A stretch of 64,000 bases of DNA from the IMG/VR virus record IMGVR_UViG_3300020049_013266, positions 10,815-74,814 of that record. One strand, given 5' to 3'. Positions within the stretch are counted from its first letter, which is position 1. Every line of letters starts with the position of its first letter. The notes under the pieces were generated by a model, which saw only the letters and a list, made by a program, of their open reading frames with translations, ran no database searches and was not told the origin of the DNA. The translations under genes and the position numbers were made by a program. Source of the stretch: a virus. Its lineage: Duplodnaviria > Heunggongvirae > Uroviricota > Caudoviricetes. Of this stretch, positions 8,916 to 9,349 are shown in pieces.

Positions 8916-8996
8916 AACCGGAAAAGGGATTCGAACCCTTAAAACCCCTGCTTCTAAAACAGGATACTCTACCATTCGCTTTTATGTCATTCCGGC
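8916..8996 (-). tRNA. tRNA, anticodon loop UUUAGAA (anticodon UAG, Leu-type) with unusually long D-region
   Basis: Hand fold on the minus strand: acceptor GCCGGAA/UUCCGGU (G1-U72), T-arm AAGGG-UUCGAAU-CCCUU, anticodon stem CCUGU/GCAGG. 80 nt, with about 24 nt between position 9 and the anticodon stem. The boundaries are supported by the regular 5-6 nt spacing of the array. Confidence 0.5.
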
Positions 8997-9002
8997 ATTT
9001 TG

Positions 9003-9089
9003 CAGAAAATAAGAGAATCGAACTCTTGCCGATGTTACTCGGACCCGATTAGCAGTCGGGCGCAACAAACCAACATTTGCCTATTTTCT
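9003..9089 (-). tRNA. tRNA-Ser (anticodon GCU), type II
   Basis: Acceptor AGAAAAU/AUUUUCU, D-stem GCA/UGC, anticodon stem CCCGA/UCGGG with loop CUGCUAA, long variable arm, T-arm AAGAG-UUCGAUU-CUCUU; 86 nt. Confidence 0.75.
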
Positions 9090-9094
9090 ATTTG

Positions 9095-9181
9095 CGGAAG
9101 ATGTAGGACTCGAACCTACACGCCATTACGACTAACTGTTTTCAAGACAGCATCCCTTAGACCAACTTGGATTAATCTTCC
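9095..9181 (-). tRNA. tRNA-Ser (anticodon UGA), type II
   Basis: Acceptor GGAAGAU/AUCUUCC, anticodon stem GCUGU/ACAGU with loop CUUGAAA, long variable arm, T-arm GUAGG-UUCGAGU-CCUAC; 86 nt. Confidence 0.7.
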
Positions 9182-9186
9182 TTTTG

Positions 9187-9260
9187 TAGAAGCGGTGGGA
9201 TTTGAACCCACAGCGGAACAGATTTTAAGTCTGATGCGTTTACCCTTTCGCCACGCTCCT
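9187..9260 (-). tRNA. tRNA with anticodon UAA (Leu-type anticodon on a short-variable-loop body)
   Basis: Acceptor AGGAGCG/CGCUUCU (one G-U pair), D-stem GCG/CGC, anticodon stem (U)CAGA/UCUG(U) with loop CUUAAAA, 5-6 nt variable loop, T-arm GUGGG-UUCAAAU-CCCAC; 74 nt. Confidence 0.6.
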
Positions 9261-9266
9261 TTTTAG

Positions 9267-9349
9267 TGGGAGTAGATGGGCTCGAACCACCTACCTATGC
9301 CGGTTACCAGATTTACAGTCTGGCGCTTATCCTGTTTAGCATTACTCCC
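9267..9349 (-). tRNA. tRNA-Tyr (anticodon GUA), type II
   Basis: Acceptor GGGAGUA/UACUCCC, D-stem GCU/AGC, anticodon stem CCAGA/UCUGG with loop CUGUAAA, long variable arm, T-arm GGUGG-UUCGAGC-CCAUC; 83 nt. Confidence 0.75.

Follow-up and report, generated by a model that had tools for sequence, protein, structure and literature searches.

A phage tRNA array with two short-arm leucine tRNAs, one of them with a candidate additional core helix

Five transfer RNA (tRNA) genes lie on the minus strand at positions 8916-9349 of the stretch of viral DNA analysed here, 64,000 nucleotides (nt) of the IMG/VR virus record IMGVR_UViG_3300020049_013266, hereafter called the window. ARAGORN gives them a span of 8915-9349 and the Rfam tRNA family RF00005 agrees. 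The array encodes the tRNAs Tyr(GUA), Leu(UAA), Ser(UGA), Ser(GCU) and Leu(UAG) (Table 1). In bacteria, the tRNAs with a long variable arm are those for exactly these three amino acids, Leu, Ser and Tyr. Here the arm is present in the Ser and Tyr genes, and each of the two Leu genes has a variable loop of 6 nt. The tRNA-Leu(UAG) has in addition an insertion following G9, whose first bases covary with the beginning of the variable loop, a pairing that we call helix X. This helix-X tRNA-Leu(UAG) appears, from the sequences collected, to be an undescribed structural variant, widespread in phages, with good covariation support for a helix of 2-3 base pairs (bp).

The members of the array are separated by spacers of 5-6 nt (CUAAAA, CAAAA, CAAAU, CAAAAU) and CCA is encoded by none of the five genes. 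An earlier note on this DNA, made without database searches, had described five closely packed minus-strand tRNA genes with the anticodons UAG, GCU, UGA, UAA and GUA, lying between terminator hairpins inside the structural module. ARAGORN, Rfam and the flanking sequences bear out all of this: a hairpin is present on either side of the array and the open reading frames (ORFs) on both sides match virion structural protein families. The hairpin located directly upstream of tRNA-Tyr is absent from the terminator-scan calls because its loop exceeds 8 nt. For a host of the Bacteroidota type, scanning for sigma-70 promoters is not informative.

The gathering score of RF00005 is 29 bits. It is reached, with a full cloverleaf, by tRNA-Leu(UAA), which has the top score of the array, and by tRNA-Tyr, tRNA-Ser(GCU) and tRNA-Ser(UGA). 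The tRNA-Leu(UAG), its stretch being searched alone, misses it (28.4 versus 29 bits) because its D-loop insertion measures 12 nt versus 5 nt. The earlier note had proposed covariance-model scores as a check that the two Leu-anticodon genes are not pseudogenes. The UAA gene lies above the threshold; the UAG gene falls just short of it, and its stems are backed by compensatory changes in 15 homologues. The ARAGORN call for this gene (8915-8980, a D-armless tRNA of 66 nt with the anticodon at position 25) is mis-bounded. The real start is at 8996, and the resulting 81-nt reading is backed by Infernal and by covariation among homologues. Minimum free energy (MFE) folds were not accepted, the cloverleaves of several of these AT-rich tRNAs not being recovered.

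The distance from position 8 to position 26 in the Infernal alignments is 19 nt in tRNA-Tyr and tRNA-Leu(UAA), 22 nt in tRNA-Ser(GCU), 23 nt in tRNA-Ser(UGA) and 26 nt in tRNA-Leu(UAG). The first two D regions are canonical and those of the two Ser genes are of the usual Ser size or 1-2 nt above it. The statement of the earlier note that all members have D regions 3-7 nt longer than canonical therefore fails for four of the five genes, and the enlargement is real only in tRNA-Leu(UAG).

Table 1. Location of the tRNA genes, of their flanking hairpins and of the structural elements of tRNA-Leu(UAG) in the window
Feature	Position	Strand	Basis
tRNA-Tyr(GUA), type II with long variable arm, A73, canonical 19-nt D region	9267-9349	-	ARAGORN; Rfam 47.2 bits
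tRNA-Leu(UAA), 6-nt variable loop UCCGCU, anticodon 9225-9227	9187-9260	-	ARAGORN; Rfam 60.4 bits
tRNA-Ser(UGA), type II, G73	9095-9181	-	ARAGORN; Rfam 42.9 bits
tRNA-Ser(GCU), type II, G73	9003-9089	-	ARAGORN; Rfam 43.2 bits
tRNA-Leu(UAG), 81 nt, short variable loop, enlarged acceptor-to-anticodon-stem region, anticodon 8954-8956	8916-8996	-	Rfam 28.4 bits (local search); family model R1 90.7 bits
7-nt insertion ACAUAAA between G9 and the D stem of tRNA-Leu(UAG)	8981-8987	-	comparison with type II tRNA-Leu(UAG) and family members
Candidate helix X, 5' strand: A8987, C8986	8986-8987	-	covariation
Candidate helix X, 3' strand in the variable loop: G8945 with C8986, U8944 with A8987	8944-8945	-	covariation
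D arm AGC / GAAUGGUAGA / GUA of tRNA-Leu(UAG)	8965-8980	-	two covarying pairs (here G-U, C-G); outer A-A position mismatched
Variable loop GGUUUU of tRNA-Leu(UAG), 6 nt, with its final U as the candidate for U48 pairing with A15	8941-8946	-	sequence, family alignment
Discriminator U73 of tRNA-Leu(UAG)	8916	-	sequence
Bidirectional terminator hairpin	8883-8906	both	terminator scan
Hairpin (AAUCCCUA / UAGGGAUU, 10-nt loop) followed by a T-run, directly upstream of tRNA-Tyr	9350-9384	-	read from sequence

Leucine tRNAs with short variable loops

The short variable loops that the earlier note had seen on the UAG and UAA tRNAs are real. Refolding shows no hidden arm in either of them, and neither has the long variable arm (a stem-loop of more than 10 nt) of bacterial tRNA-Leu. 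tRNA-Leu is described as long-armed everywhere but in animal mitochondria (PMC9976931). The rule invoked in the earlier note, that bacterial tRNA-Leu is always type II, stands for cells but not for T5-like phages, in which short-loop tRNA-Leu is already annotated. Short-arm phage tRNA-Leu is already known, though little noticed, and phages break a long-arm rule stated in textbooks and reviews (PMC9976931). The leucyl-tRNA synthetase (LeuRS) of E. coli does not use the arm. It needs A73, which is crucial, together with A15-U48, G18G19, A20a and D/T-loop contacts, and an arm-less minimal tRNA-Leu is still active (PMC9976931). The Leu D/T-loop core (A14, A15 with U48, G18G19, A20a) is present by sequence in both genes of the window: the D-loop is GAAUGGUAGA in tRNA-Leu(UAG) and GAAAGGGUAAA in tRNA-Leu(UAA), and both variable loops end in U. 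The discriminator A73 is found in tRNA-Leu(UAA); tRNA-Leu(UAG) carries U73.

The tRNA-Leu(UAA) exhibits an A1-U72 pair, a Leu-type D arm (GGCGAAAGGGUAAACGC) and a canonical D region. Nearly all of its BLAST matches among GenBank phages are annotated tRNA-Leu genes. When compared with the type II tRNA-Leu(UAA) of cyanophage syn9 and of ctEqG8, its acceptor, D, anticodon and T arms match throughout, and the only large difference is a 10-nt gap located exactly at their variable arm. Because the gap falls only there, the gene is, to judge by this alignment, a tRNA-Leu body minus its arm and not a foreign body with a Leu anticodon. It shows all the traits of the T5/BF23-type short-arm tRNA-Leu: about 74 nt before CCA, a loop of 5-6 nt, a Leu anticodon, a Leu D arm and a canonical D region. 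The tRNA-Leu(UAG) shares these traits except the canonical D region.

Short-arm tRNA-Leu(UAA) genes also occur in the closest relatives (L026 1513-1586, L029 4819-4892, L034 391-464 and L025 2829-2902, L numbers denoting collected loci). Within their ARAGORN bounds these genes show an A1-C72 mismatch atop the acceptor stem, and that of L025 also has a 4-bp D arm that is not Leu-like. In other phage contigs, tRNA-Leu genes of short-arm size (76-77 nt) have CAA and GAG anticodons (L146 4020-4095; L189 4643-4719 and 4824-4900), which indicates that phage tRNA-Leu has lost the arm in isoacceptors besides UAA and UAG.

In tRNA-Leu(UAG), the acceptor (7/7), anticodon (5/5) and T (5/5) stems are intact and the D-loop and T-loop motifs are kept. 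Canonical phage type II tRNA-Leu(UAG) reads GUG-GUG-GAAUGGUAGA-CAC-G where the window gene reads UG-ACAUAAA-AGC-GAAUGGUAGA-GUA-U, so that the D-loop is the same in both. The 3' half is 86.5% identical to the T5-like tRNA-Leu1 over 37 nt. In relatives, the gene of this family sits between tRNA-His and tRNA-Arg(ACG), and in L025 and L049 the same His/Arg(ACG) slot holds a plain short-loop tRNA-Leu(UAG) of 75-76 nt. The Leu ancestry of the gene is shown by this D-loop identity, the match of its 3' half to T5-like tRNA-Leu1 and the genomic slot shared with plain tRNA-Leu(UAG). The earlier note had considered the Leu identity of both tRNAs uncertain. This was overly cautious, since the UAA body aligns with the tRNA-Leu(UAA) of syn9 and ctEqG8 and the UAG gene keeps the Leu D-loop and a T5-like 3' half. 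Its mention of suppressor-like species is wrong, as the UAA and UAG anticodons read the sense codons UUR and CUN; neither tRNA has one of the suppressor anticodons CUA, UUA and UCA.

Full-length homologues of tRNA-Leu(UAG) were found in the Cellulophaga phages Calle_1, phi38:1 and phi40:1 (73-78% identity). Pattern scans together with a covariance model (R1) yielded a window family of 15 distinct sequences. A metagenome scan gave four new members, its remaining hits being duplicates or a chance coding match. When 185,579 representative bacterial and archaeal genomes were searched with the pattern of the window subfamily, four chance hits and no tRNA were obtained.

Pairing between the insertion and the variable loop

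The cloverleaf is 92.5% paired in the 15-member family, with a compensatory change in 19 of the 23 pairs, and none of 500 shuffles was as good. Two column pairs of the D stem covary (19-32 and 20-31) while the columns 18-33 are never paired. Two alternative D stems, UGA/UCA (positions 7-9) and ACAU/GAGU (given by Infernal), were rejected as neither is consistent across the family. The first pair of helix X is A-U in 11 members and G-C in 4, the second is C-G in 8 and G-C in 7, and both are formed in every member. Nine of the 15 have a further U-A pair in third position. These counts were made on an N-padded, hand-registered alignment (A3), because a MAFFT alignment (A1) and a model-derived one (A2) had gaps within the insertion or the stem of the anticodon arm.

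A looser scan for short-loop tRNA-Leu(UAG) genes returned at least 119 stretches. Among the matches listed, 64 distinct genes were parsed from the collected loci, 51 with an enlarged D region (24-28 nt) and 13 with a canonical one. All 63 listed genes other than the window copy have A73, U73 being found in the window copy alone. A gapless subclass (A4) comprises 19 sequences of exactly 80 nt each, with no indels and no alignment choices. An all-against-all scan of its columns recovers the pairs of the acceptor, anticodon and T stems along with two pairs of the D stem and both pairs of helix X. The other column pairs are few; they are in adjacent register or G-U only, and take in columns that belong to these helices or to the U-rich variable loop. 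Helix X is 100% paired in this subclass, with A-U in 11 and G-C in 8 sequences at the first pair and C-G in 18 and A-U in one at the second. The signal is lost in shifted registers. The nearest neighbours of the sequences in the G-C state are mostly in the A-U state, which suggests that the two states have switched repeatedly. In the enlarged genes as a whole, the complementary combinations include AC/GU, GC/GC, GU/AC, GA/UC, CC/GG, ACC/GGU, AGU/ACU, GGU/ACC and GCU/AGC, and a permutation test on the 13 distinct haplotypes gives p <= 5e-5.

The same architecture and pairing were met as by-catch in tRNA-Leu(CAA) (GA/UC, GC/GC) and tRNA-Leu(UAA) (GGA/UCC, GCU/AGC). Within the loci gathered, for which UAG-biased patterns were used, all clean examples of helix X have Leu anticodons. 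Among the matches listed, 12 of the 13 short-loop tRNA-Leu with a canonical D region lack the complementarity; the exception, L199, has an intermediate D region of 22 nt and both pairs. The helix-X class as defined here is characterized by 5-8 nt inserted after G9, the first 2-3 of which are Watson-Crick complements of the beginning of a U-rich variable loop of 6-7 nt, by a covarying 2-bp D stem and by a Leu anticodon, and the window gene displays all of these features. A pairing of AAAA in the insertion with UUUU in the loop was ruled out: the GCU.../AGCUUU subfamily (L026, L033, L105, L144) has no matching A-tract, and in L072 and L087 a U-to-C change is compensated only under helix X. No description of the insertion or of the helix was found in the literature searched, in which subscription journals are thinly covered.

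Phage context, codon use and annotation

The window has a GC content of 33.6%, and its genes include those for a portal protein, for several proteins of the virion and for a GroEL-like chaperonin. A search with a virion structural protein matches only Flavobacterium, Cellulophaga and Maribacter phages (identity up to 36%), and the source is a flavobacterial-type phage. A search with the adjacent structural protein retrieved 51 related viral contigs. In the closest of them (L029, L034, L077), an array much like this one lies at the same site and with the same orientation, with the order Tyr-Phe-Leu(UAA)-Ser(UGA)-...-Cys-Leu(UAG).

Among the Leu codons of the phage, UUA represents 41%, UUG 21%, CUU 20%, CUA 10%, CUG 6% and CUC 2%. 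Ser codons are divided between UCN (69%) and AGY (31%), and Tyr codons between UAU (65%) and UAC (35%). With UAA reading UUR, UAG reading CUN, UGA reading UCN, GCU reading AGY and GUA reading Tyr, the array can decode all Leu, Ser and Tyr codons, about 19% of total codons. The idea of the earlier note that the array supplements codons for an AT-rich phage is weakened, because the Flavobacteriaceae hosts of the related phages are AT-rich and the phage itself is at 33.6% GC.

Helix-X genes lie near or below the Rfam threshold (28.4 bits in the window; 29.4 bits, 28.7 bits or unlisted for other members), and most are either overlooked by ARAGORN or reported as D-armless. The orthologue of Calle_1 is annotated as 'tRNA-OTHER (Undet NNN)' and the copies of phi38:1 and phi40:1 are unannotated, as are the CCA-encoding helix-X copies of Synechococcus phage BUCT-ZZ01 and Rhizobium phage RHph_I1_18. 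Since these genes are at or under the ARAGORN and Rfam thresholds and are unannotated or 'undetermined' in these cultured phages, phage tRNA inventories and codon-coverage analyses under-count tRNA-Leu(UAG). In the reverse-complemented locus of Calle_1 (L001, MT732432), the annotated tRNA coordinates are about 52 nt off the ARAGORN and model positions, Leu(TAA) for example being annotated at 2540-2622 and found at 2592-2675. With this offset, the 'tRNA-OTHER Undet' coincides with the helix-X tRNA at 2500-2582.

Other elements of the window include a sixth tRNA-like gene (54473-54558, plus strand), which scores 43.6 bits on the Rfam tRNA model in a local search but went undetected when the whole window was scanned at the gathering score. 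Its body is of type II and long-armed, its D-loop is Ser-like, it has U73, and its anticodon loop of 8 nt (CGACCAUA) lacks the U normally found at position 33; ARAGORN reports it as 'tRNA-??? (acca)'. No full-length homologue was found among GenBank phages and a loose pattern scan for homologues returned chance matches only. It may represent a pseudogene, a decoder of an unusual kind or an element that resembles a tRNA. The GroEL-like chaperonin is full-length (59181-60743, minus strand), its best solved relative being an ancestral Fibrobacteres-Chlorobi-Bacteroidetes GroEL (E = 1e-75). A Pistol self-cleaving ribozyme (RF02679) is located at 48204-48266 on the minus strand (62.8 bits versus a gathering score of 34.5, E = 4.6e-9). 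In the related viral contig L037, ARAGORN calls a permuted gene resembling transfer-messenger RNA (4709-5183, minus strand) with the tag peptide ETTQLIKSFF.

Interpretation and comparison with known systems

We consider it likely that the array is a five-gene phage tRNA operon with full decoding sets for Leu, Ser and Tyr, in which tRNA-Leu(UAA) has lost its arm and tRNA-Leu(UAG) belongs to the helix-X class of phages. Seryl-tRNA synthetase and bacterial tyrosyl-tRNA synthetase rely on the long variable arm for recognition, and the Ser and Tyr genes would have kept the arm that these enzymes need. Leu would be the one long-arm family able to drop it because bacterial LeuRS does not use it, and the loss would be tolerated in both Leu genes, which retain the D/T-loop core. 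In the tRNA-Leu(UAG) class, with its insertion of 5-8 nt right after G9, its D stem down to two covarying pairs and its U-rich variable loop of 6-7 nt, the first 2-3 inserted bases would pair with the first bases of the variable loop (A8987-U8944 and C8986-G8945 in the window). Helix X would then enclose the D and anticodon arms, and the four-way junction would become two three-way junctions. Its 3' strand would sit at the starting point of the 5' stem strand in a type II variable arm; its 5' strand, following position 9, would be near that region, to judge by the structures of canonical tRNAs. Most simply, helix X may brace a core that has been weakened by arm loss and by a D stem of 2 bp, and it may also take the place of the arm's base. 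The host enzyme would presumably charge both tRNAs with Leu, the window copy with U73 included.

Several observations weigh against this interpretation. The window tRNA-Leu(UAG) has U73 whereas A73 is the main determinant of bacterial LeuRS, and this copy may be poorly charged. Its charging is uncertain: it may be weakly charged, recently mutated or tolerated by the host LeuRS. The gene also lies just under the Rfam threshold. Helix X measures 2-3 bp and is not predicted by MFE folding, for which it is too short, and in the window subfamily its third position is a purine-G mismatch. The register of the 15-member alignment was set by hand, a choice of which the gapless class is independent. Sequences of tRNA length give weak phylogenies and the number of independent compensatory events is uncertain. 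Finally, the substitution of helix X for the variable arm's base is purely inferred.

The window tRNA-Leu(UAG) might instead be decaying or inactive, a relic or decoy in which the change of A73 to U has removed a key LeuRS determinant. This is unlikely. U73 is indeed unique among the 64 short-loop tRNA-Leu(UAG) genes parsed from the matches listed, A73 is crucial for E. coli LeuRS (PMC9976931) and the Rfam score is under the gathering threshold. However, the long stems are intact and both loop motifs kept, the score on model R1 falls inside the range of A73 members, and the same picture would result from one recent substitution or from an error in sequencing. It is also improbable that the insertion after G9 is a tolerated floppy linker forming no helix, whose apparent pairing is a by-product of shared ancestry and low complexity. 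Such a linker would agree with the shortness of the helix and its absence from MFE folds, with a register that differs by one nucleotide between subfamilies and with a shuffle control that ignores relatedness. It agrees poorly with the presence of at least eight complementary di- or trinucleotide combinations, none being non-complementary in the gapless class, with the loss of the signal in slid registers and with the interleaving, by overall similarity, of sequences in the G-C and A-U states. Moreover, short-loop Leu tRNAs without the insertion lack the complementarity, except L199 with its 22-nt D region.

Arm loss could also be mainly an escape from a host or competitor nuclease recognising long-arm tRNAs, and not a matter of codon supply, the phage bringing in its own Leu, Ser and Tyr tRNAs as replacements and Leu being the only family able to shed the arm. 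The array does comprise exactly the three long-arm families with all their codons covered, a codon-bias mismatch is not obvious as the phage is AT-rich and so is the clade of its likely host, and short-arm tRNA-Leu recurs in unrelated phages. We nevertheless regard this explanation as quite unlikely, since the arrays of close relatives also include Phe and Cys and the idea draws on an analogy to eukaryotic Schlafen enzymes, no such bacterial nuclease being identified here. Charging of the short-arm Leu-anticodon tRNAs with another amino acid, or a role as suppressors, is very improbable. It would accommodate the lack of a long arm, the non-Leu discriminator of the UAG gene and the annotation of the Calle_1 orthologue as 'tRNA-OTHER, Undet', but the anticodons pair with UUR and CUN and not with stops, the bodies are homologous to tRNA-Leu, and ORFs are long and dense under the standard code. 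When the phage GroEL is aligned to a solved Bacteroidetes-group ancestral GroEL, UUA falls at Leu in 6 of 13 cases and CUN in 7 of 14, against a Leu background of 8%. There is no signal of Leu codon reassignment in this alignment.

The operon with an arm-deleted tRNA-Leu(UAA) and a helix-X tRNA-Leu(UAG) may have a wider bearing. It is conceivable, though doubtful, that helix-X tRNA-Leu is an undescribed natural tRNA architecture of bacterial translation, which would rebuild the base of the arm or brace the D stem, remain acceptable to LeuRS and the ribosome, and shed a feature that might let a nuclease recognise long-arm tRNAs, in UAG, UAA and CAA isoacceptors and in many phage lineages. The predicted helix X is carried by podophages of Flavobacteriaceae, by a cyanophage, by a Rhizobium phage and by contigs of jumbo phages. 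If helix X is real, phages would provide a naturally occurring tRNA that has an additional helix in its core and functions with the bacterial machinery. It would constitute a natural probe of the limits of tolerance of bacterial LeuRS, EF-Tu, RNase P and ribosomes, and a new scaffold for orthogonal tRNAs. All known bacterial tRNAs are canonical cloverleaves according to PMC11551756 (2024).

Non-standard D and variable regions are likewise found in tRNA-Sec (with a 6-bp D stem), tRNA-Pyl and armless mitochondrial tRNAs, as described in PMC7609411. In the passages of that review returned by the search, no helix joining the 8-10 connector to the variable loop is mentioned, and 'phage' is a word that the review does not use. 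Animal mitochondrial tRNA-Leu also has no long arm, its LeuRS reading A73 and A14 (PMC9976931). It is, however, organellar and degenerate, has no insertion after position 9 and is unrelated by descent.

T5-like phages offer closer comparisons. Vibrio phage vB_ValS_X1 (Demerecviridae) has two 77-nt tRNA-Leu genes, UAG and UAA. The BF23 record AJ604530 includes tRNAL1, a tRNA-Leu reading CUA with a 77-nt sequence and the variable loop GUUUU; its annotation states that swapping the anticodon to CUA 'converts this tRNA into effective amber suppressor'. These genes form a precedent for working short-loop Leu tRNAs. The T5-like tRNA-Leu1 (BF23 tRNAL1, vB_ValS_X1) is likewise a phage tRNA-Leu with a short U-rich loop (GUUUU or AUUUU), a Leu-type D-loop and a UAG or UAA anticodon. 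It carries A73, a canonical D region of 20 nt, a 3-bp D stem and an encoded CCA, with no insertion after position 9, whereas the window tRNA-Leu(UAG) displays a 7-nt insertion, a 2-bp D stem, the candidate helix X, U73 and no CCA. Type II tRNA-Leu (UAA in syn9; UAG in the IMG/VR contigs L009 and L014) shares its body with the window tRNA-Leu(UAA) and the D-loop GAAUGGUAGA with the window tRNA-Leu(UAG), but has a variable arm of 10-15 nt that both window genes lack. The orthologues of Calle_1, phi38:1 and phi40:1 (Pervagoviridae, Callevirus) share with the window gene the insertion, the D-loop, the UAG anticodon and the U-rich loop. They differ from it by A73 and by a predicted helix X of 3 bp (AGU/ACU), where the window gene has U73 and 2 bp followed by a mismatch.

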